Of a stretch of DNA of 64,000 nt, positions 10,502-32,476 are shown one piece after another. How positions within the stretch are numbered: position 1 is the stretch's first letter; the number at the start of each line of letters is the position of its first letter. The notes under the pieces were generated by a model. That model did not search any database. It worked only from the letters and a program-made list of their open reading frames with translations, and was not told the DNA's origin. Position numbers and translations under genes: made by a program. The DNA lies in contig NZ_JBBIUQ010000015.1 of assembly GCF_037440165.1 (NCBI RefSeq), positions 12,491 through 76,490 on the forward strand, given 5' to 3'. The DNA is from Ignavibacterium sp. Lineage in GTDB: Bacteria > Bacteroidota > Ignavibacteria > Ignavibacteriales > Ignavibacteriaceae.

Positions 10502-12523
10502 TCAATATGCAATATCAATCTGAAAACTTATTCTGTTATCAATGTTGTTTCTGATAAGATTATTTCCTGAGCTTAAACTTTTTTCACTTGGTTTGTAAGT
10601 TTCTGCATATTTCATCGAGAAAGTTAGAAAGCCGAATGGTTTATATCTTATCATAAGATACCATCTTAATCCTTCACCATACATAGCAAGATTTGTCAGA
10701 ACTCCCGTTAAATCATTTTCAAATTCATAAACAGCGGAATTAAATGAATCAGTGTCAAAAAAAATGATTCGTCCATAAGCAAGTAGTGACTTTGAAATGA
10801 CATATCTGAAATCCTGAAAAATTAAAATTCCATTTTCGATCATTTCTGCTTTAGAAATTTCATAAGTATTATATTCAATTCTGGATTTCATTCTTAATTT
10901 GTTTGAAATATCATAAACCAGTTCAGTTCGATACGAATTTCTTATTCTCTCAACAACTGTTTTAATATTGTTGAGATTTTCTGTAACCTCTTTTCGTTCT
11001 GTCTTAATTCTCAGGTTGATTTGTGTTTTCCTGAAAATATTTTTTGAATAACTCAGGTAAAATTCATTTCCTGTTGATGGTACAGGGGTTTCAAAAGTTA
11101 CAAATGGAAATCTGAACTGATCGTAATAAAAATTTATTAAGCCAAAATTACTTCGCCATTTAATTCCATAATAAATTCCGAATTCATTGCTGGTGTTTCC
11201 AGATTGTTCTCCGAAAGCGAAACCATGAAGATTGACAAAGCTGCGTGAATAACTTCTGAGGCTTGCTGTGATGATAAAATTATTTAGTGGAGTGATGATA
11301 ATTCCGTTCAGCGAAGCAACCGATGTTTGATTGTAAACAAATTCTCCGAAAATATTTACAGGACTAAGATTAACATCATAATCGAAAGAATAATACCTGA
11401 AATTATTGCCTCTGATATCATAGATTGAGTTGGGTTCAAATTCATTGCTGAATTTTGATTCGTAAGCAGATAATCCTGCACTCAACAATTTTTCATATTT
11501 ATAGGAAATTCTTCCACCGAAAATTCTTTCGCTGATCCGATTTTCCTTTTCTAAATCATTTTCAGTTAAATGTAATCCTGTTTTAGGTGTTGATGTTATT
11601 TTATTTGTCACAGAATCAACATTCGCATCAATTTTTTTTGATGAATAAAAAGCGGTGAATGAAAAGTTTGAATAATCGATCGTTGCTGCAGCACCGCGCA
11701 TAAAATCATACTCTGTAGCGCTTGTATAAGGTTTGAGAATTTTACCTTTTCGTTTTACTGGAAAAATGGCATCAGCACCTTTTGAAAAACCATAAGGACT
11801 CCACAACATCAGACCTTGTCCAAACTCTAAAACATAGTCTCCCACAACTATATTATTTAGAACTCCATAATTTTTAACATTGAGATGAAAAGAGTTGAAG
11901 TCATCGAAATCTTTTTCTCCTGCATCTTTATCGAATAAAATTCCTGCCTGAATTTGTTTGGAATATTTAACTAATAATCTGTTATAAGCTCTTAATTTAC
12001 TTCCAAGATAAGTTCCATCTTCAAAACCTTTGCGGGTTTGTAAATCATTCCCTAAACGACTTCTTAAATAAAATTTAAATTCTGAAGGTAGAATTCTGGC
12101 TTCGGAGAAATCTTCCTGAAATAATGTCGAATCATAACTGATCGATTCTTTATCAACTTTCAGAAAAGGAATTATACGATTAATTAACTCTCTGTCTAAT
12201 TCTCTCATAGCATTAAGCTCATTTACTGAATAAAATGGTCCGAACCGGTTTCTGTAAGAAAGAATAATCTCCGCAGTATTAGATTCTAAACCAGGTATTT
12301 TCTGAAGTTCAAAAACATCTGCTGTGTTGAGGTCAATTGGATTTAATATCAGCTCTTCAACTGCGTTGTACAAATCTGAATTATCTTCCTCAAAGAATGA
12401 TTCATCCAGAATTTCATCGAGTGCTTCTTCGGTTTTGATTTCCGTTGAATCTATTATTTGTGAATTGAGAAAAAAGAAGGGAAATAATGTTAGGTATAAA
12501 ATGTTGAAAACAATTTTCATCAT
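10502..12523 (-). CDS. Secreted protein with N-terminal ComEA-like helix-hairpin-helix domain fused to a large predicted outer-membrane beta-barrel
   Basis: Signal peptide. HhH segment DLNTADVFELQKIPGLESNTAEIILSYRNRFGPFYSVNELNAM. About 520 aa rich in alternating Y/F/G/N/S strands, ending ISFQIDIAY (aromatic C-terminal residue). Confidence 0.6.
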   Translation of the reverse strand: MMKIVFNILYLTLFPFFFLNSQIIDSTEIKTEEALDEILDESFFEEDNSDLYNAVEELILNPIDLNTADVFELQKIPGLESNTAEIILSYRNRFGPFYSVNELNAMRELDRELINRIIPFLKVDKESISYDSTLFQEDFSEARILPSEFKFYLRSRLGNDLQTRKGFEDGTYLGSKLRAYNRLLVKYSKQIQAGILFDKDAGEKDFDDFNSFHLNVKNYGVLNNIVVGDYVLEFGQGLMLWSPYGFSKGADAIFPVKRKGKILKPYTSATEYDFMRGAAATIDYSNFSFTAFYSSKKIDANVDSVTNKITSTPKTGLHLTENDLEKENRISERIFGGRISYKYEKLLSAGLSAYESKFSNEFEPNSIYDIRGNNFRYYSFDYDVNLSPVNIFGEFVYNQTSVASLNGIIITPLNNFIITASLRSYSRSFVNLHGFAFGEQSGNTSNEFGIYYGIKWRSNFGLINFYYDQFRFPFVTFETPVPSTGNEFYLSYSKNIFRKTQINLRIKTERKEVTENLNNIKTVVERIRNSYRTELVYDISNKLRMKSRIEYNTYEISKAEMIENGILIFQDFRYVISKSLLAYGRIIFFDTDSFNSAVYEFENDLTGVLTNLAMYGEGLRWYLMIRYKPFGFLTFSMKYAETYKPSEKSLSSGNNLIRNNIDNRISFQIDIAY

Positions 12524-13365
12524 TTAATTCCAAGATAATTCCTGATTTGTTGTTTTCTGCTCATCTCCTTATTAAAACTGATAAGAAGCCCAACCTGATG
12601 TGTTAATCCTAAATCAATATGAGTAAACATCGCATAATCAAGACTAATAAAGGAATAGTTAATTCCAATTCCTGCAGAAAATCTCGAAGGTTCATTTGAA
12701 AACCCTGAGCGAAGGGAAAGATATTCGATTAAATCATAATCAACACCAAACATCAATGAAGTTTTATATCTCAGGTCTTTTTCTAATGCTGCATTTATGG
12801 ATAGCGGATTAATTAAATCATAACTTATTCCTGCATTAAGTAAAACGGGTATCTGATCATCATCATTTCCAAAAGAAGCACGATTAATATTTTGAAAAGA
12901 AAATCCCAACCTGAAATCTTCTGATAAATAAACTAATCCACCAATATTGAAATATAAAGCATTATCATCACCATAATTTTTTATTGAAAGAGTATGAAAA
13001 TTGAATGCAGCACCGGCAAAAAATTTATTCTGATAATTATATGAATAACCCAGAACAATTTTTGATTCACGATATAAATCAAAACCGTAGGTCATTCCTC
13101 CGATTGAAATTGAGCCGAAACTGAAAGGTTCTGTATAAGCTACATAAGCATTTGCAAGCTCTTTTAATCCAAATGGAGCAGGAGAATAGTAAATTCCAAT
13201 TTCTCTCCAATCGATTTGTGAGAGTCCGGATGGATTATTAAACAATGAAAAAACATCATTACTAAGAGCAACATCAGAATTGGATAAAGATATTTGTTTT
13301 GCTCCGGGATTGAATTGAGCCAAAGTAAATGAGCTTAAAAGAAATATGATGGAAAGAATTTTCAT
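12520..13365 (-). CDS. Predicted outer-membrane beta-barrel protein (PorV/PorQ-like; tentative)
   Basis: Signal peptide MKILSIIFLLSSFTLAQ. Segment SNSDVALSNDVFSLFNNPSGLS resembles the N-terminal motif of PorV/PorQ/FadL-like barrels. Alternating-strand composition. 4-nt overlap with the downstream HhH-barrel gene. Confidence 0.4.
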   Translation of the reverse strand: MKILSIIFLLSSFTLAQFNPGAKQISLSNSDVALSNDVFSLFNNPSGLSQIDWREIGIYYSPAPFGLKELANAYVAYTEPFSFGSISIGGMTYGFDLYRESKIVLGYSYNYQNKFFAGAAFNFHTLSIKNYGDDNALYFNIGGLVYLSEDFRLGFSFQNINRASFGNDDDQIPVLLNAGISYDLINPLSINAALEKDLRYKTSLMFGVDYDLIEYLSLRSGFSNEPSRFSAGIGINYSFISLDYAMFTHIDLGLTHQVGLLISFNKEMSRKQQIRNYLGIK

Positions 13366-13437: not shown

Positions 13438-14319
13438 ATGAAAAAAAATTTTGTTATTCTCATTTCGCTTGTTTTAACATTTCAATTATATGCTCAGGAA
13501 TTGAATTGCAGAGTAACAGTAAATTACGAAAAACTGCCAATCAATAACCGCGAACTTCTTGCAAACTTTGCCAACGAAATTGAAACATATATTAACAAAA
13601 CTCAGTTTACCGGTGAACCATTCGACGGAGAAAAAATTAATTGTGCATTAAATATTTTTTTTACATCAGCTTCCAGTGATATTGAGTATTCAGCACAAGT
13701 TGTCATTACAAGCACAAGACCTGTTTACAAGTCTGACAGACAATCTCCAATGCTCACAATTAATGATGCAAACTGGAATTTTAAATATGAAAAAGGACAA
13801 CCGCTTTATTCCAATCAAAGTATTTATGATCCTATAACAAGTTTTCTTGACTTTTATGCCAACATCATTATTGGTTTTGATTATGAAACCTGGGAAGAAT
13901 TTTTAGGTACTCAATATTTTCAAAAAGCATTTAACATTGCTAATCTTGGAATGAACAGCAATTATAAAAAAGGTTGGGAAAGAACCAGCGATGCATATAA
14001 CCGCACAAGACTATGTGAAGATTTATTAAATGATAAATTCAGACCTTTCCGTGAAGCATTTTACGAATACCATTATGGAGTTGATTTATATCAGGTTAAT
14101 AAAGCCGAGGCGCAGGATCATATTACAAATCTTGTGAATGTATTGGACGATTTGAAAAATAAAACTGATATAAACAGTGTGTTAATCAGAACCTTTTTTG
14201 ATGCTAAAAATGGTGAGATAACTGACCTTCTGAGGGATTATAAGGATCTAAATGTTTTCAGCAAGCTGAAAAGAATAGATCCATCTCATATTTCAAAGTA
14301 TAATGAAGTGATGAAGTAA
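13438..14319 (+). CDS. DUF4835-family protein (family named PorD in type IX secretion annotation)
   Basis: Signal peptide followed by QELNCRVTVNYEKLP...; length about 290 aa. I recognise this as the DUF4835 N-terminal signature from memory. Not verified by search. Confidence 0.55.
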   Translation: MKKNFVILISLVLTFQLYAQELNCRVTVNYEKLPINNRELLANFANEIETYINKTQFTGEPFDGEKINCALNIFFTSASSDIEYSAQVVITSTRPVYKSDRQSPMLTINDANWNFKYEKGQPLYSNQSIYDPITSFLDFYANIIIGFDYETWEEFLGTQYFQKAFNIANLGMNSNYKKGWERTSDAYNRTRLCEDLLNDKFRPFREAFYEYHYGVDLYQVNKAEAQDHITNLVNVLDDLKNKTDINSVLIRTFFDAKNGEITDLLRDYKDLNVFSKLKRIDPSHISKYNEVMK

Positions 14320-16311
14320 TTATTTAATGAGCTGAACAGAGATGATTATATCTCCTTCTGCAATATTCATAACTAAATTTCTTCCTGCAGTCACTTCTGC
14401 GAATAGTGTATATCTTCCGTTCAGGTGCGGATAATATCCTTGCATTATAAAAAATTGCGAACCTTCTGTGTCTTTACCAGCACTTGCCATTCCAACTGCT
14501 CCTGTGAAAAATTCTTCAGGAGAAAATTCTGAAATTATTTCATAACCTGGTCCGCCCCAGCCAGTACCAGTTGGATCGCCTGTCTGAATCACAAATCCCG
14601 GCACTACTCGATGAAAGTTAATTCCGTTATAGAAATATTTTTCAGCCAAACTAATAAAATTGCCAACTGTAACAGGAACTAAATCGGCTCTGAACTTAAT
14701 TTCAATATTGCCCTTATTAGTTTTAATTATAGCACCTGAATATTCAAAAGATTTTTTGAGCAGCGAATCAAGATTTGGAAACTCCTTTGAAACAATTTCT
14801 TTGTTAGTTGATTCTTTATTTAGAAATTTTTTCAATGCATAAACTTTTGTATCAGAAAGATTGCTAATGACTTCTTTATAAAAACTATCTGATATTTTCT
14901 TTGATAGATTGATTAGAGAAAATTTTGCTTCTATAAAATCAGTATTGTTTTTAAATCGATTTGTCTGCTCAAGGATAATGGTTTTTAACTTATCAGAATT
15001 TCTTTTGACAAAGCTTGAATCAAGTCCATCTGCAGCAGTTGAAATGATTGCAGCATTGTTTGATAAAAGTGAATTGGAAACAAAGTTATTGAATAATGAA
15101 TCATTTGGAAAAACCTTACTTTCACTCAAAATAAATTCTAAGGCAGTGATTCTTTCTTTCAAGTCTTCGGTTTCTGAATAAAGTTTTTCAACCTCATCAA
15201 ATTTCAAATTGTCCTTTTGTTGATCGAAAAGAAGCTGCAACCGAGTTCTGGTAGTTAGTTTTGAGTTTAAAGAACCACTATTCAAATTATCATCAATTCC
15301 AAATAAATATTTGTAAGCATTAAACGCTTCTTCAATAATAATTTTATTGGTTGATTCTTTAATTATTTCTATAAGTGTGTTTTTGATTCTGTAATCATTC
15401 AATAAATCACTATCCCATTTATTTACTTGTAATGATCTTAAACCTTCTATTATAAGATTCTCGTTTTCTGAATTAAGAATTGATTTAATAATGCTGATTA
15501 CACTTGGTTTATATTCTGAATAAGGAAGAACTTTAATGAATTCAATTCTTACAGCATCACTTTTTGAGTTTAATTCAGATAAAAGCTTTTGATCAGCTGG
15601 AAAATATTTTTGAATACGAAAATTCATCAATAATAGCTGTAATAGTTCATCATCATTTGAAGTTGATAATATTTCAAGCAAACGAGGATTAATTGTGCTG
15701 TCACTTCCTAATCGTGCAAGAGTAAATAAAGCTTTCTTTTTTCTATTTACAGAGATTGAATTATCACTTATCTCTTCAACTAATATTTTTTTGCTTAGCT
15801 CTGATTTAATATTCCTATTTCTGAATTGAAGAATTGCATCTTCAATACCATTGAAAAATGATTTAGGAAGATTCCGATTAAAATATAAATCGTTTAATCT
15901 TTGCAAATCACTTTCATCACCAAGTTTGCCCAGAGCATAAAAAATATACTCTGAACATTTACAGCTGCTATCAAATAAATTTTGCCATAAATATTTTTTT
16001 GAAATTTCAGACTTACCAATTTGACCTAAAGTAAATGAAATCCATTTGCCGTATTTCCTAAAATCAAGTTCAGTAAGCTGTTTTATGAATGTTGTATCTT
16101 CCGAATGTGAGAATGAAAGAAGAGCAGCAATAACCTGAGATGAATCTGATGAGTTAAGATATTTTTCAATTACTGTTTTATCAAATTGTCTTTTGGCTGT
16201 ACTTTCAATCAAATCGTAATAGTCCGGTTTGAATTGCCCAATAGAGAAATTACTGATAGCAAAAAATATCAGTGAGAAAATCTTTATGATGTTCAGATAG
16301 AAATTTCCCAT
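14320..16311 (-). CDS. Cyclophilin-type peptidyl-prolyl cis-trans isomerase with ~480-aa N-terminal helical-repeat extension
   Basis: The C-terminal 170 aa has FHRVVPGFVIQTGDPTGTGWGGPGYEI and GAVGMASAGKDTEGSQFFI. N-terminal signal peptide, then a long Leu/Lys/Ser/Asn-rich region with no motif I can assign. Confidence 0.85.
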   Translation of the reverse strand: MGNFYLNIIKIFSLIFFAISNFSIGQFKPDYYDLIESTAKRQFDKTVIEKYLNSSDSSQVIAALLSFSHSEDTTFIKQLTELDFRKYGKWISFTLGQIGKSEISKKYLWQNLFDSSCKCSEYIFYALGKLGDESDLQRLNDLYFNRNLPKSFFNGIEDAILQFRNRNIKSELSKKILVEEISDNSISVNRKKKALFTLARLGSDSTINPRLLEILSTSNDDELLQLLLMNFRIQKYFPADQKLLSELNSKSDAVRIEFIKVLPYSEYKPSVISIIKSILNSENENLIIEGLRSLQVNKWDSDLLNDYRIKNTLIEIIKESTNKIIIEEAFNAYKYLFGIDDNLNSGSLNSKLTTRTRLQLLFDQQKDNLKFDEVEKLYSETEDLKERITALEFILSESKVFPNDSLFNNFVSNSLLSNNAAIISTAADGLDSSFVKRNSDKLKTIILEQTNRFKNNTDFIEAKFSLINLSKKISDSFYKEVISNLSDTKVYALKKFLNKESTNKEIVSKEFPNLDSLLKKSFEYSGAIIKTNKGNIEIKFRADLVPVTVGNFISLAEKYFYNGINFHRVVPGFVIQTGDPTGTGWGGPGYEIISEFSPEEFFTGAVGMASAGKDTEGSQFFIMQGYYPHLNGRYTLFAEVTAGRNLVMNIAEGDIIISVQLIK

Positions 16312-17414
16312 ACACGATATTTTTTATAAACTTCAGCGTTCAGTGCCTGAGCACCTCTGTTCATCATATCATTGTCTTCTAATATCCAGCTTGCTTCACC
16401 TTTAAAAATTCCAAGTTTTGCTGCTCGATTTACAATTTCCCAATAGAACACAGCGTCTAATCCTTTTTTCTGAAATTCAGGAATTATTCCCAAAGTAATA
16501 ATTCTCGCCCAAGTTATATTTTTCTTTTTCGTGTAGAGTTTAATGAAGTTGAATGGAAACAGATGACCATTCATCTCTTTGAACACCTGACTGTAATCAA
16601 GCATCACAAGTGCAAATCCAACTAACTGATTGTTTATTTCACCGAACAAAACAAGAGACGGTTCTGCGAGAGGTTTAAGATCTTTAGCAGCTGCATCAAT
16701 TTCTTCATCAGTCATAGGAACAAATCCCCAGTTCAGAGCCCAGGCTTTGTTATAAATATATTTCACTTTTAACAACTCGTTCTTAAAATCTTTCATATTC
16801 AGCGAGGTAATTTTTATGCCTGTTCTTTTCTGAGCTATCTCAGCAACTCTTCTGACTTTGTCTGATGATACAACTTTATCGTATTCAAGACTATAAGCGT
16901 AAAGATCTTTTGCTTTTTTGAATCCATAATTTTCACACAGATTTATGTAGTAAGGAGGGTTGTAATTCATCAAAATTCTTGGTGAATCATTGAATCCTTC
17001 AATCAGCATTGCGTACTCATCATTACTTGAAGGATTTGCAGGACCACGCATAGCATTGAATCCCCTAGCTTTAAGCCAGTTTTTTGCTGCATCAAATAGA
17101 GCATTTGCAACTTGCTGATCATTTATGCATTCGAAGAAACCGAAAAAGCCAACTTTGTCGTGATGATATTTATTGTGCAAATCATTTCTGATAGCTGCAA
17201 TTCTTCCAACTAATTCACCGTTTATTTCAGCGAGAAAATATTCAGCATCACCATGTTTGAAAAAAGGATTTTTATCTTTACTCAACAATTTTTTTCTATC
17301 CATTATCAGTGGTGGAACCCAGTATGGTTCACCATCATATATTTTCCACTGAAATTTAATAAACCTCATCAGGTCAGATTTAGTTTTGACAGTTGAGATT
17401 TTTATTTCGCTCAT
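16293..17414 (-). CDS. GNAT-fold N-acyltransferase-like protein (373 aa), function unknown
   Basis: Long ORF with segments LVGRIAAI...VGFFGFFE and LGIIPEFQKKGLDAVFYWEI that resemble acyl-CoA N-acyltransferase core motifs. Family-level call only. Confidence 0.5.
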   Translation of the reverse strand: MSEIKISTVKTKSDLMRFIKFQWKIYDGEPYWVPPLIMDRKKLLSKDKNPFFKHGDAEYFLAEINGELVGRIAAIRNDLHNKYHHDKVGFFGFFECINDQQVANALFDAAKNWLKARGFNAMRGPANPSSNDEYAMLIEGFNDSPRILMNYNPPYYINLCENYGFKKAKDLYAYSLEYDKVVSSDKVRRVAEIAQKRTGIKITSLNMKDFKNELLKVKYIYNKAWALNWGFVPMTDEEIDAAAKDLKPLAEPSLVLFGEINNQLVGFALVMLDYSQVFKEMNGHLFPFNFIKLYTKKKNITWARIITLGIIPEFQKKGLDAVFYWEIVNRAAKLGIFKGEASWILEDNDMMNRGAQALNAEVYKKYRVWEISI

Positions 17415-17437
17415 ATTAATTCCTTTTTAATAAAAAA

Positions 17438-17571
17438 AGAGGCTGTCTCAAAAATGTCATTCCGTCCGTTAACTAACGGATTATTTCGGAATCTAATGAA
17501 TTGATTTTCAAATCAAATGAGAACCCGAAAAAAGTTCGTGTTGACAAAAATTGACTTATGAGACAGCCTCT
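17438..17571. repeat. 134-bp nested-hairpin element, copy A, with 13-bp perfect terminal inverted repeats AGAGGCTGTCTCA / TGAGACAGCCTCT
   Basis: Read directly from the sequence. Inner stems are ATTCCG(17459-64)/CGGAAT(17487-92) and TCCGTTA(17465-71)/TAACGGA(17474-80). A related copy lies at 32345-32476. On the minus strand the outer stem is followed by T7, so it may also terminate the 17591..18781 gene. Confidence 0.75.
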
Positions 17572-17590
17572 TTGAAGATGATTTATAAAC

Positions 17591-18781
17591 TTAAATTATT
17601 CCTAATTTTTTTCCTGCGGACTCAAACACATTCAGTATTTCATCAAGATGCTGCTTTTCGTGAGTTGCCATATAACTTGTTCTCATCATTTGTCTTCCCG
17701 GAGGAACACCAGGCGAAATAAATACATTTACAAATACACCGTTATCATAAAGCATTCGCCACATCTGAAAAGCCAGAGCATCATCACCTACAATTACAGG
17801 AACAATAGCTGTTCTTCCTTCAAGTACATTAAATCCAAGAGAGCGCAAATTTTTTCTCATGTATTGTGCATTATCAATAAGATTATCTACTAATTCAGGT
17901 TGAGCTTCCAGAATATCAAGTGCTGCCAATGCTGCGGCAACTGAAGCTGGAGTTGGAGAAGCACTAAAAATCAGAGCAGGTGAGAAATGCTTTAAGTAAT
18001 TGATAACTCTTTCTGCGCCGGCAACAAATCCACCAAGTGAAGCAAATGTTTTGCTGAAAGTACCCATTGTTAAATCAACTTCTTTTTCAAGGTTGAATTC
18101 GCTCGCAGTTCCTCTTCCTCCTTTTCCAATAACTCCAACAGCGTGTGCATCATCAATAAGAATTCTTGCATTGAACTTCTTGGCAAGTTCGTTAAGTCGG
18201 GGTAAATCAACTATTTCACCACCGGTTGAAAAAACGCCATCACTAACAATTAATTTTCCGGCATCAACAGGAATTTTTGAAAGCACTCTTTCAAGATCAT
18301 CCATATCGTTATGTTTGTATCGAACGAGTTCTCCCATTGAACCTTTGGTCATTAAAGTTCCGGCAACTATACAAGCGTGATTATCTTTATCAGAAATCAC
18401 ATATTCATTTCTTTGAACAAGTGTTGGTATAATGCCTTGAGCAGTCTGGTACCCAGTGCTGTATAAGAGAACTGCTTCAGTATTGAAAAATTTGGCAAGT
18501 CTGGATTCCAACTCAATATGAAGATCGAGTGTTCCGGTAAGATAACGGGAACCAGAACAACCTGTTCCATATTTTTCAACAGCTTTAATAGCAGCTTCCT
18601 TAACTTTTGGATGGCCTGTTAATCCAAGATAGTTATTTGAACCTGCCATAATGATTCGTTTTCCTTCAATCTTTACAACAGGTCCTTCATTTTCTTCGAT
18701 TGGTCTGAAATACGGATAAACCCCCATTGCTTTAACTTCGTCTGCTCTTGTGAACTCGTAACACTTTTTGAATAAGTCCAA
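17591..18781 (-). CDS. PLP-dependent alpha-oxoamine synthase family enzyme (serine palmitoyltransferase-like or 2-amino-3-ketobutyrate CoA ligase)
   Basis: [10 protein letters not shown]...[12 protein letters not shown]-terminus, DDAHAVG, and PLP-lysine motif [12 protein letters not shown]; 396 aa. Confidence 0.85.
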
Positions 18782-18829
18782 AATTCCTCCTGAATTATTA
18801 ACAGTTAATAGGATATATATTCTTTTTAG

Positions 18830-18837
18830 TAATTTTG
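18830..18837 (+). promoter_or_regulatory. Candidate -7 promoter element TAATTTTG (TAnnTTTG)
   Basis: Exact motif 51 nt upstream of the ATG at 18888. Confidence 0.35.
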
Positions 18838-18887
18838 TCGGCGAAAATTAAAATATAAGTTGGTAAAATCAAATAAAGAATAAAACC

Positions 18888-19880
18888 ATGGATAGTAAAC
18901 AAATTGCAGTTGTAACCGGAGGAACCGGATTTGTCGGAAGTCATCTTGTTGATCTTTTATTAAATAAAGGATTTGAAGTCAGATGCATTACAAGAAAATC
19001 TTCAGATCTTCGTTGGTTAAAAGATAAAGATGTCAAAATTTTTGATTGTGGACTCTATGATAAAGAAGCATTGAAAGAAATTATTACTGATGCGGATTAT
19101 GTTTATCATGTTGCCGGCGTTGTTAAATCAAAAACTAAAGAAGGATATTTCAGAGGAAATGTTGATACTACACGAACTTTAATTGAAGCAGCTCTGGAAA
19201 GTAAATCAAACCTGAAAAGATTCCTGGTAGTCAGCAGCCAGACAGTCACGGGTCCTTCAATGGATGTAAAGCCAGTGAACGAAGAAACTGAATGTCGTCC
19301 TATTACCACCTATGGTAAAAGCAAGCTGGAAGAAGAAACATTAGTATTATCTTATAAAGATAAACTTCCAATAACAATCTGCCGTGCGCCTGCAGTTTAC
19401 GGTGAAAGAGATACGGAAATATTTATCTACTTTAAAACATTCAGTAAAGGTTTAACTACCACTATTGGTTTTAATGAAAAGAAACTTAGTTTAATCCATG
19501 TTCTTGATTTGGTGAGAGGATTTTATTTAGCTGCAACAAATGAAAAATCACAGGGTCAAGTTTATTTCATAAGCTCAGAGGAATTATATACCTGGCCGCA
19601 GATAAATAATATTACTTCAAAAATTATTGGCAAAAAGCCAATTGCAATTAAAGTCCCTCACTTTCTGGTTTATACTATTGCAGCAATTGCCCAGTTTGCT
19701 GCTATCTTTAGTTCCAAACCTGCAACATTAAATATTGAGAAAGCGAAAGATATTACACAGCAATACTGGATATGCGATACTTCAAAAGCTGTTCGCGAGC
19801 TAGGGTATCATCAGCAAATTTCCATCGAAGATGGAATTAAAAGAACTGTTGAATGGTATAAAAAAATGAAATGGATTTAA
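18888..19880 (+). CDS. NAD(P)-dependent epimerase/dehydratase-family SDR
   Basis: Rossmann motif VVTGGTGFVGSHL and catalytic YGKSK (YxxxK); 330 aa. Confidence 0.85.
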   Translation: MDSKQIAVVTGGTGFVGSHLVDLLLNKGFEVRCITRKSSDLRWLKDKDVKIFDCGLYDKEALKEIITDADYVYHVAGVVKSKTKEGYFRGNVDTTRTLIEAALESKSNLKRFLVVSSQTVTGPSMDVKPVNEETECRPITTYGKSKLEEETLVLSYKDKLPITICRAPAVYGERDTEIFIYFKTFSKGLTTTIGFNEKKLSLIHVLDLVRGFYLAATNEKSQGQVYFISSEELYTWPQINNITSKIIGKKPIAIKVPHFLVYTIAAIAQFAAIFSSKPATLNIEKAKDITQQYWICDTSKAVRELGYHQQISIEDGIKRTVEWYKKMKWI

Positions 19881-20302
19881 TTATCCAATGCACCTTCACT
19901 GATCCAAACTTTAATTCCTCTGATCTGATTTGGAGTTAGTTGAGGCATGTATTCCGGTGGCATCGGATTAAATCCTGCTCGAGGTGGTCTATCAATTCGC
20001 CAGACTAAAATACTTGTTAATGTATCACCAGGTACAACAATTCGACCATCAACAAATCTGGAGCGTAAAGTCAAATCTAAACCAGCTTCATAAATTCCAT
20101 TTCCGTGACAAGCAAAACATTTAACCTGCAATACTGGATATATATGTTGAGAAAAACTAATATTTGAAGATGGAATAATCCGATTGTCGACATCCTGATT
20201 TGTGATTGTATCATCACAAGATATAAAAATAGATACCAGGAATATTATTTTGAAGAAAAATAAAATAGTTTTCATAACACAGGCAAACCTATTTATTTGC
20301 AT
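19877..20302 (-). CDS. Small monohaem c-type cytochrome domain lipoprotein (PSCyt1-like)
   Basis: Lipobox-like VSIFISCDD. Single CFACH haem-binding motif. Downstream pattern LDL...GD..TS.L..RI....MPP...L...QI..I..WI..GA resembles the planctomycete cytochrome c domain. Confidence 0.6.
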   Translation of the reverse strand: MQINRFACVMKTILFFFKIIFLVSIFISCDDTITNQDVDNRIIPSSNISFSQHIYPVLQVKCFACHGNGIYEAGLDLTLRSRFVDGRIVVPGDTLTSILVWRIDRPPRAGFNPMPPEYMPQLTPNQIRGIKVWISEGALDN

Positions 20303-20390: not shown

Positions 20391-20463
<73 letters not shown>

Positions 20464-20561: not shown

Positions 20562-21926
20562 ATGATAAGATTACTTCCGGTAAATAACTTCTATAAAAAA
20601 ATTCTTCATATCGCATTACCTGCTATCGCCGGACTTTCAACACAGATGATTGTTTCTCTGGTTGATACCGCAATGGTTGGAAGACTTTCCGAAGCAACTT
20701 ATGCATTAGCTGCGATGGGAATTGGTGTGCTTGCAACCTGGGCATTGATAAGTTTTTTTTCAAGTTTAGCTACAGGAACTCATGTAATTGTTGCCAGAAG
20801 ATTCGGACAAAAAGATTTTATTGAATGCGGCAATACATTAAATAACTCGCTTCTTATTTCTTTATCGATCGGCATCATGGTAGCAGCAATCGGAGCATTC
20901 TTTGCCAAACCAATTGCTGATTTATTTGCAAGTGATGATCAGGTTGCTCACTACGCTTCAGAATATATCTTTTACAGATTTCTTGGAATACCATTTTTTC
21001 TGATATCAGTTTCATTTCGCGGATTCTATTTCGGCATAAGTAAAACAAAAATTTTCATGATTTCCGGAATAATTACAAACCTTCTGAATATTATTTTCAA
21101 TTACATCTTTATCTTTGGAAATTTTGGAATGCCCCGAATGGGTTTAGCTGGTGCTGGACTTGGTTCTACTCTTGCTTCATCATTCGATTTTTTCTTTTAT
21201 ACAGCAATAATATTATTACCATCATATCGGAACAAATTTCAAAACTTTAAGAAGATTAAAATTGATTGGGAAGTGATTAAAGCAATCTGGAAAATTTCAG
21301 TTCCAGTTTCACTTCAAAATGTATTTATCCTTATTGGATTTTTAATTTTTGTTGCAATCACAGGTATAATTGGCACTCAGGAACAGGCTGCGACACAAGC
21401 TACAATCAGCACTTTGTTTATTTCATTCCTGCCTTGTTTTGGATTTGGAATTGCTGTTCAAACATTAGTTGGAAATAATCTCGGTGCAAAGAAATTTCAT
21501 TTAGCTAAAATTTATGGAATTGAAACTGCAAAAGTTGCCACAATTTATACCTTAGCTTTGGGAATATTCTTCATTTTTCTTCCGCATTATGTATTGCTAA
21601 TAATTACTAATGATAATTCGATTATAGAGACTGCCAAGCCAGCTCTTAGAATTGCTGGATTTGCTCAGATCTTTTATGCGATAGGAGTTGTTTTGGCTAA
21701 TGCACTCCAAGCTGCCGGGAAAATGCTGTTTGTTATGAAAGCTGAAGTTATAACTAATTTATTTGTTCTTGTTCCGCTGTCTTATTTAATAGGTGTTGTT
21801 TTAGGATACGGATTAAAAGGTGCCTGGTTAGCAATGCCTGTTTATATCATAATTTATACTGGTATAATTTTATTAAAGTATCTTTCAAAGGACTGGTTTG
21901 AGAAAATTCCGCTTAAAAATCAATAA
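20562..21926 (+). CDS. MATE-family efflux transporter
   Basis: 454 aa with about 12 TM helices. N-terminal ILHIALPAIAGLSTQMIVSLVDTAMVGRL is typical of MATE proteins. Confidence 0.85.
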   Translation: MIRLLPVNNFYKKILHIALPAIAGLSTQMIVSLVDTAMVGRLSEATYALAAMGIGVLATWALISFFSSLATGTHVIVARRFGQKDFIECGNTLNNSLLISLSIGIMVAAIGAFFAKPIADLFASDDQVAHYASEYIFYRFLGIPFFLISVSFRGFYFGISKTKIFMISGIITNLLNIIFNYIFIFGNFGMPRMGLAGAGLGSTLASSFDFFFYTAIILLPSYRNKFQNFKKIKIDWEVIKAIWKISVPVSLQNVFILIGFLIFVAITGIIGTQEQAATQATISTLFISFLPCFGFGIAVQTLVGNNLGAKKFHLAKIYGIETAKVATIYTLALGIFFIFLPHYVLLIITNDNSIIETAKPALRIAGFAQIFYAIGVVLANALQAAGKMLFVMKAEVITNLFVLVPLSYLIGVVLGYGLKGAWLAMPVYIIIYTGIILLKYLSKDWFEKIPLKNQ

Positions 21927-32344: not shown

Positions 32345-32476
32345 GAGGCTGTCTCATAAATCTTAAACTGTCAGTCTGATCCGTCAGCTGACGGATGTCG
32401 AAGACTGACAATTCTAATCAATATCACATTTTGACAAGCTCAATGTGACAGTAAAAATTACTATTGAGACAGCCTC
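32345..32476. repeat. 132-bp nested-hairpin element, copy B, with 12-bp perfect terminal inverted repeats GAGGCTGTCTCA / TGAGACAGCCTC
   Basis: Read directly from the sequence. Middle stem TGTCAGTCT(32369-77)/AGACTGACA(32402-10). Inner 16-nt palindrome TCCGTCAGCTGACGGA(32380-95). Same termini and similar internal layout as copy A. Confidence 0.75.

Follow-up and report, generated by a model that had tools for sequence, protein, structure and literature searches.

A predicted ceramide pathway in Ignavibacterium: neighboring genes for a serine palmitoyltransferase-like synthase, a tandem-GNAT acyltransferase and a CerR-like reductase

The ceramide pathway of Caulobacter is reportedly known from the work of Olea-Ozuna in 2021 and Stankeviciute in 2022. 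In Caulobacter crescentus it consists of a serine palmitoyltransferase (Spt, CC_1162/CCNA_01220), a bacterial ceramide synthase (bCerS, CC_1154/CCNA_01212) and the reductase CerR (CC_1164/CCNA_01222) (PMC11087976, PMC9386255). The corresponding cluster of Escherichia coli BL21(DE3) contains spt (ECD_02854), acpR, epi (ECD_02852), aasR and yghO (ECD_02850). yghO and CC_1154 are listed as "aca", the acyl-CoA N-acyltransferase gene for dihydroceramide synthesis, and epi is listed as a homologue of CC_1164/CerR (PMC9386255). In Bacteroides fragilis, knock-outs of CerS (BF9343_4218) and CerR (BF9343_4240) accumulate 3-ketosphinganine and keto-dihydroceramide, respectively, a result that favors acylation ahead of reduction (bioRxiv 10.1101/2023.05.23.541633). 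Here we describe three neighboring genes in 64,000 nucleotides of DNA from Ignavibacterium sp. (the window; contig NZ_JBBIUQ010000015.1, positions 12,491 to 76,490). They encode a pyridoxal phosphate (PLP)-dependent alpha-oxoamine synthase, P0002, a GNAT-type N-acyltransferase, P0001, and a short-chain dehydrogenase/reductase (SDR), P0003. Comparisons of sequence make it likely that this trio is the Ignavibacteria version of the Spt - bCerS - CerR pathway.

The host genome is 3.13 Mb in size with 33% G+C, and the window lies on its contig C15. Homologues of the window proteins are named Ignavibacterium, Melioribacter and Rosettibacter, which places the genome in the class Ignavibacteria of the Bacteroidota. 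The three genes had been recognized in the initial annotation at 16293-19880 as encoding a 373-residue GNAT-like protein, an alpha-oxoamine synthase and an SDR; the coordinates in the open reading frame list match exactly and the Pfam assignments agree. These are Acetyltransf_1 for P0001 (weak, 30.9 bits, residues 48-122), Aminotran_1_2 for P0002 (178 bits) and Epimerase for P0003 (129 bits). The motifs quoted there are all found in the translations: a ten-residue motif at residues 20-29 and SNNYLGL at 48-54 of the synthase, and GGTGFVGSHL at 11-20 (GGTGFVG at 11-17) and YGKSK at 142-146 of the SDR. Strong conservation in relatives shows that all three are real genes. The synthase and GNAT genes run in one direction; the SDR gene runs divergently from them, starting at a shared region of 106 bp. 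No membrane spans are predicted in any of the three proteins.

In the proposed pathway, P0002, with Lys244 of its GTFSK motif as the Schiff-base lysine, would condense L-serine with a long-chain acyl thioester to form 3-ketodihydrosphingosine (3-ketosphinganine), a step suggested by the family and the conserved residues of the enzyme. P0001 would N-acylate the 3-keto base from an acyl-CoA-type donor and generate 3-oxo-dihydroceramide; homology, gene linkage and gene fusions point to this activity. P0003, using Tyr142/Lys146 and NAD(P)H, would reduce the 3-keto group and produce dihydroceramide, as its homology and co-occurrence suggest. The order, acylation then reduction, is taken by analogy from Caulobacter (PMC11087976) and from the B. 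fragilis work (bioRxiv 10.1101/2023.05.23.541633), and the reverse order, reduction before acylation, is possible. Since the trio are clear relatives of the three ceramide enzymes, the organism very probably makes a sphingolipid. A role of the sphingolipid as a substitute for lipid A was considered and rejected; lipid A is not replaced, because LpxC is present.

The synthase was analyzed by model scores, structural relatives, phylogeny and active site residues. P0002 begins with a TTG, the first start codon of its open frame; the alignments with orthologues start at residue 1-2. Its top NCBIfam model is SerpalmtaseCFB (NF047600), with 496.6 bits, versus 361 for BioF and 312.7 and 374 for the Kbl models. 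The top PDB relative is the Sphingobacterium multivorum SPT (3A2B/8GUH; 387 bits, aligned over residues 5-385). Among other PDB entries, Kbl scores ~250 bits, the cysteate acyltransferase CapB (28eh) 237 and SulA (7u7h) 192. A maximum likelihood tree was calculated from 27 sequences that included CFB-type Spt, cysteate acyltransferases (CFAT), Kbl, BioF and the E. coli BL21 Spt, an enzyme already studied by experiment. Four of its five CFB-type Spt score 670-677 bits and one scores 638 (cut-off 640), and two of the CFATs were verified against PDB 28eh (575-579 bits). P0002 falls into a clade with the five CFB-type Spt and the E. coli BL21 Spt (support 96/91), the latter 36% identical to it, and the CFAT (100/100), Kbl and BioF sequences are all outside this clade. 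Its position is in a sister branch common to green sulfur bacteria and two further families (f29 and f39).

Inspection of the alignment columns showed that P0002 has the Spt signatures GTFSK and C-S-G-S-R-Y-L, and lacks the Kbl signature GTLGK and the CFAT signatures P-M-G-A-R-M-M and T-F-A-K. In the S. multivorum SPT the PLP-serine contacts are made by Asn52, Tyr54, Gly80, Ser81, His138, Ser185, Thr241, Ser243 and Lys244 (PMC10196870). All of these are kept in P0002, as N49, Y51, G77, S78, H135, S185, T241, S243 and K244, and the aligned Asp-x-x-His motif (D210/H213) is kept as well. The sole other alpha-oxoamine synthase paralogue in the genome, on contig C17, is a true Kbl (TIGR01822, 684 bits versus a cut-off of 493). 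In the initial annotation the N-terminus of the synthase had looked closer to Bacteroidetes serine palmitoyltransferases than to E. coli Kbl, and the tree, the model scores and the separate true Kbl agree with it. Together these data support the assignment of P0002 as an Spt-like enzyme that belongs with Spt rather than with Kbl, BioF or CFAT.

The same data bear on threonine catabolism, the alternative raised in the initial annotation, in which the SDR would be an L-threonine 3-dehydrogenase (Tdh), the synthase would be Kbl and the acyltransferase would be unrelated. Kbl is known to pair with SDR-type Tdh, and P0002 does reach 313-374 bits on the Kbl models. These scores however are under the respective cut-offs of 493 and 460 bits, the true Kbl is encoded on another contig, and the tree parts P0002 from Kbl. 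Where Kbl has GTLGK and S-S-V-R-F-I-C, P0002 has GTFSK and C-S-G-S-R-Y-L. In addition, there is no threonine dehydrogenase among the PDB matches of P0003, and the GNAT is linked, even fused, to this type of synthase. The chance that the locus serves threonine catabolism is therefore negligible.

P0001 has no NCBIfam match and no PDB match by sequence, and no bCerS structure is present among the PDB sequence matches. It is, however, a full-length homologue of E. coli K-12 YghO, the E. coli counterpart of CC_1154, with 33% identity over 374 residues (E 1e-68). The predicted structure is a tandem GNAT (pLDDT 96.6), and the PDB folds nearest to the model are the clavulanate tandem GNAT 2wpw, 5kf1, 7q3a and MshD (TM ~0.6, 11-15% identity). 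P0001 is 72-90% identical across Ignavibacteriales, and a family member is present in 120 of the 121 sampled genomes of the class. In the GNAT family tree it groups with YghO and with Spt-adjacent and fused members, outside two long-stemmed divergent clades. These findings support P0001 as a member of the bCerS/YghO family and a predicted ceramide synthase.

The wider distribution of the GNAT family provided additional observations. The nearest neighbor of P0001 in the tree, 55% identical, is encoded in a 6-Mb Bacteroidota genome (G253:C1:5181024-5182106, locus L126). That genome has no Spt-like synthase anywhere, and no SDR or synthase gene lies within 6 kb of its GNAT gene. A distant bCerS-family member (28-35% identity) is kept in seven of seven checked Bacteroidota genomes that lack Spt and carry CFAT. 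In one of these (G215, C1:1313933-1316291) the gene lies 125 bp from the CFAT gene, and in the other six the two are non-adjacent. The idea that the distant members are capnine N-acyltransferases of sulfonolipid synthesis is a weak lead, because adjacency to CFAT is found in only one of the seven genomes. In E. coli K-12 (L010, NC_000913.3 3129043-3131340), IS5 abuts yghO and the spt-acp-epi-ligase genes of BL21(DE3) are missing; K-12 is thus a natural spt-free host.

A sulfonolipid pathway would use related chemistry: the synthase would condense cysteate with an acyl thioester to form 3-ketocapnine, the SDR would reduce it and the GNAT would N-acylate the capnine. Sulfonolipids are widespread in Bacteroidota, their synthesis relies on these same three types of enzyme (PMC13692747, PMC11211663), and the persistence of distant bCerS-family members in CFAT-bearing, Spt-less genomes also favors this possibility. 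The synthase itself speaks against it. It is outside the strongly supported CFAT clade, and its score to CapB is well below both its score to SPT and the CapB scores of true CFATs. It lacks the CFAT P-M-G-A-R-M-M insertion as well as T-F-A-K, F-A-K-S/A and F-G-Y-Q-G, and no CFAT-type paralogue was found in the host genome. Sulfonolipid synthesis by this trio is thus highly improbable.

The third protein, P0003, forms a reciprocal best-hit pair with "epi" (ECD_02852) of E. coli BL21. The scores are 95 bits versus 42 for the runner-up in one direction and 93 versus 36 in the other, and the cofactor and catalytic motifs align. No threonine dehydrogenase is found among its PDB matches, and its relationship to the E. 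coli homologue of CerR supports P0003 as a predicted CerR counterpart. Caulobacter CerR has been reported to be periplasmic (PMC11087976). P0003 begins MDSKQIAVVTGGTG, and ECD_02852 has a similar start. No signal peptide is visible in the P0003 sequence, read directly and with no localisation predictor run, because the Rossmann motif starts already at residue 11.

Gene order was compared in 80 named species-level loci and in a phylum sample of 201 genomes. The synthase gene is directly upstream of the GNAT gene in 72 of the 80 loci, and the full SDR<->Spt->GNAT layout is found in 65 of these 80 Ignavibacteria-type loci, most exceptions being contig ends. The same layout holds within the phylum sample in the taxonomic order to which the window belongs. 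The divergent SDR/synthase arrangement is kept both in this order and in green sulfur bacteria, which have the nearest orthologues outside Ignavibacteria (63-69% identity). The presence of the FMO protein identifies three families, f31, f34 and f46, as green sulfur bacteria; in these the SDR/Spt pair stays divergent and the GNAT gene lies elsewhere. In family f39 the Spt and GNAT genes are adjacent and the SDR gene is ~2.7 kb off. Two genomes with a canonical Spt, G281 and G169, have Spt-GNAT-SDR operons, and Spt-GNAT adjacency occurs in several other families of the phylum. A locus search with a 9-sequence alignment recovered close relatives only, with no Caulobacter or Bacteroides locus among the matches.

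The SDR gene also co-occurs with Spt. Homologues of P0003 at E <= 1e-25, tallied from the tables of the 201-genome sample, occur in 150 of the 155 genomes that have an Spt-like gene versus 6 of the 46 that lack one, and those six are all weak matches. Two Spt-less families, f32 (0/13) and f30 (0/5), have none. The initial annotation had proposed a possible ceramide/sphingoid-base triad, and the homology of all three proteins together with this strong co-conservation supports that proposal. Of the refuting sequence outcomes that it named, a synthase within Kbl, an SDR among threonine dehydrogenases and a GNAT unlike bCerS, none was observed.

Further evidence comes from natural single-gene fusions of 780-821 residues, in which an Spt-like synthase forms the N-terminal part and a bCerS-like tandem GNAT the C-terminal part (Table 1). 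The fusions are found in sister families of the Ignavibacteria class and in metagenomes, and fusion-bearing genomes retain a second, stand-alone copy of the GNAT. Such a protein fits two enzymes that would act back to back.

Several observations weigh against the ceramide assignment. First, the NF047600 score of P0002 is below the equivalog cut-off of 640 bits for CFB-type Spt. Scores of 457-503 bits were likewise obtained for its orthologues from green sulfur bacteria and families f29/f39, and therefore the whole sister branch is outside the curated model. Second, P0002 has Ala114 at a position where nearly all alpha-oxoamine synthases (Spt, Kbl, BioF) carry Asn. The S. multivorum counterpart, Asn117, is located beside the PLP ring. 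This column reads Ala-Gln throughout the class Ignavibacteria and Gly-Gln in green sulfur bacteria, and the Asn is kept in families f29/f39 and in canonical Spt. P0002 has two more substitutions relative to the S. multivorum SPT, Ala79->Ser76 and Met271->Ile271. Third, some genomes that lack an Spt-like gene altogether still carry members of the bCerS family, and the substrate is therefore not fixed by family membership alone. Fourth, P0003 is only 26-28% identical to the E. coli CerR homologue, and its top curated model is HpnA, at 145 bits far under the cut-off, followed by many models of sugar-nucleotide enzymes. Finally, the tie of YghO and "epi" to Caulobacter bCerS and CerR is taken from a published list of homologues.

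The low Spt score and the replacement of the Asn by Ala-Gln or Gly-Gln also favor a variant in which the enzyme types are the same and the preferred substrate of the synthase in this Ignavibacteria/Chlorobia subclade is not serine but alanine, glycine or another amino acid. In that case the trio would yield, in place of ordinary dihydroceramide, an N-acyl amino-ketone/alcohol lipid that is 1-deoxy or non-canonical in some other way. Bacterial Spt can accept Ala and Gly, although inefficiently (PMC10196870), and the supplement of PMC11334938 attributes 1-deoxyceramides to the same set of enzymes. However, the residues that touch the serine hydroxyl and carboxylate, directly or via water, are all conserved. 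Green sulfur bacteria share the substitution, yet passages of PMC11762602 and PMC7203096 report sphingolipid from them. A preference for a non-serine substrate is accordingly quite unlikely.

The weak relationship of P0003 to curated models leads to another possibility, that Spt and GNAT make a ceramide-type lipid, P0003 is an unrelated sugar-nucleotide or HpnA-like enzyme, and another reductase, e.g. a 3-ketosphinganine reductase of the BT_0972 type, carries out the reduction. The HpnA and sugar-nucleotide matches, the low identity to the E. coli CerR homologue, and the incomplete contiguity of the trio in green sulfur bacteria and in family f39 are in line with it. Against it are the wide margins of the reciprocal best hits, the way the SDR tracks Spt across the phylum, including its absence from the Spt-less families f32 and f30, and its presence inside Spt-GNAT-SDR operons with a canonical Spt. 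An unrelated SDR is very unlikely, and the CerR-like assignment is preferred.

A more speculative extension of the ceramide pathway concerns the Ignavibacteria/green-sulfur Spt subclade. Because the Asn beside the PLP ring is lost there, these enzymes might have a shifted preference for the amino acid or the acyl donor and might produce a non-canonical long-chain base. Combined with the recurrent fusions, this would suggest a channelled Spt-bCerS unit that passes the reactive 3-keto base straight to the acyltransferase. As a whole this extension is unlikely.

The spacer between the synthase and GNAT genes consists mostly of a palindromic repeat element of ~135 bp, whose terminal inverted repeats of 12 nt, GAGGCTGTCTCA, are located at 17439-17450 and 17559-17570. 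A T-run follows the 3' arm. A second element with the same ends is located at 32345-32476, and at least 12 near-full copies with 72-87% identity are spread over the genome. The element is a MITE/REP-like insertion, because in the closest relatives, where it is missing, only 18 nt separate the two genes. Inside the operon it may serve as a hairpin or terminator. The spacer was also considered as a structured RNA regulator (z -6.2); this was rejected, the element being a dispersed repeat that is missing in the closest relatives. A promoter and terminator scan found no more sites than in shuffled sequences, and a promoter in the 106-bp region was not identified.

Other genes flank the trio. Upstream are a PorV/PorQ-like type IX secretion gene (12520-13365) and PorD (13438-14319). 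Adjacent to the GNAT gene, at 14320-16311 (-), is a gene for a 663-residue protein whose cyclophilin peptidyl-prolyl isomerase domain is confined to residues 529-653, with a long HEAT-like extension at the N-terminus. There is a 19-nt overlap between the start of this gene and the stop of the GNAT gene, and in 17 of the 80 related loci the GNAT gene is followed by a homologue. On the other side, a 141-residue PSCyt1-type cytochrome c-like protein is encoded at 19877-20302 (-), convergent on the SDR gene with a 4-nt overlap. This gene is beside the SDR gene in 52 of the 80 loci, and it is probably local synteny, not part of the pathway. Farther downstream, a tRNA is encoded at 20391-20463 (+) and a MATE efflux protein at 20562-21926.

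Table 1. Positions of the predicted ceramide genes, the regions between them and related gene fusions
Feature	Position	Strand	Remarks
P0001, tandem-GNAT N-acyltransferase of the bCerS/YghO family, predicted bacterial ceramide synthase	16293-17414	-	373 aa
Spacer between synthase and GNAT genes	17415-17590	-	176 bp, mostly inserted palindromic repeat element
P0002, serine palmitoyltransferase-like PLP alpha-oxoamine synthase	17591-18781	-	396 aa, TTG start
Divergent intergenic region between synthase and SDR genes	18782-18887		106 bp, presumed shared promoter region
P0003, CerR-like extended SDR, predicted 3-oxo-ceramide (or 3-ketosphinganine) reductase	18888-19880	+	330 aa
Spt-GNAT fusion	L006:5163-7628	-	
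Spt-GNAT fusion	L008:11699-14125	-	
Spt-GNAT fusions			P0184, P0264

The trio can be regarded as a new example of a known pathway that was already predicted for the lineage, with possible novelty only in the Asn->Ala change and the fusions. A sphingolipid was described from Chlorobium limicola (Jensen 1991, as cited in a passage of PMC11762602). The genetic potential for sphingolipids in "Ignavibacter" is mentioned in a passage of PMC10667739, cited there from Stankeviciute 2022, and monoglycosyl ceramides were correlated with amplicon sequence variants of Ignavibacteria (PMC10667739). An excerpt of the Black Sea supplement text has no Ignavibacteria entries. Because the pathway is known and was predicted for the lineage, the value of the analysis is in annotation and in the choice of organisms for lipidomics, not in new biology. 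It suggests a function for a GNAT annotated as "hypothetical protein" that is kept across Ignavibacteriales and nearly the whole class. It also predicts ceramide-type lipids in Ignavibacteria, a common group in sediments, hot springs and wastewater; the prediction is relevant where bacterial sphingolipids serve as environmental biomarkers.

Compared with known systems, the trio shares with the sulfonolipid system of CapB/SulA and ketocapnine reductase a three-step logic of synthase, reductase and N-acylation, but P0002 is outside the CFAT clade and without the CFAT motifs. The ketocapnine reductases known to date were discovered through homology to 3-ketodihydrosphingosine reductase (3-KDSR) (PMC11211663), whereas P0003 is an epimerase-type extended SDR. 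Relative to the S. multivorum SPT, P0002 has the same PLP and serine-contact residues and differs in its score under the cut-off, in three substitutions and in its sister-branch position. B. fragilis belongs to the same phylum and has the same pathway logic, but the Bacteroides genes are not beside spt.

The E. coli BL21(DE3) cluster, at 2989276-2994879 of NC_012892.2, matches the trio in all three components: YghO corresponds to P0001, "epi" to P0003, and its Spt is in the tree clade of P0002. For E. coli "epi" and yghO, too, the roles have been proposed on the basis of homology. Unlike the Ignavibacterium locus, the E. coli cluster carries genes encoding an acyl carrier protein (ACP) and an acyl-AMP ligase, and its yghO is divergent from the remainder. 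Similarly, in contrast to Caulobacter and other Proteobacteria, no dedicated ACP or acyl-ACP synthetase gene is beside spt here among the nine flanking open reading frames scanned. P0002 is on the Bacteroidota-type Spt branch whereas the Caulobacter Spt is rhodobacterial. Common to Caulobacter and Ignavibacterium, at the level of enzyme families, is the combination of an alpha-oxoamine synthase, a GNAT-type N-acyltransferase and an epimerase-type SDR, encoded in a genomic cluster.

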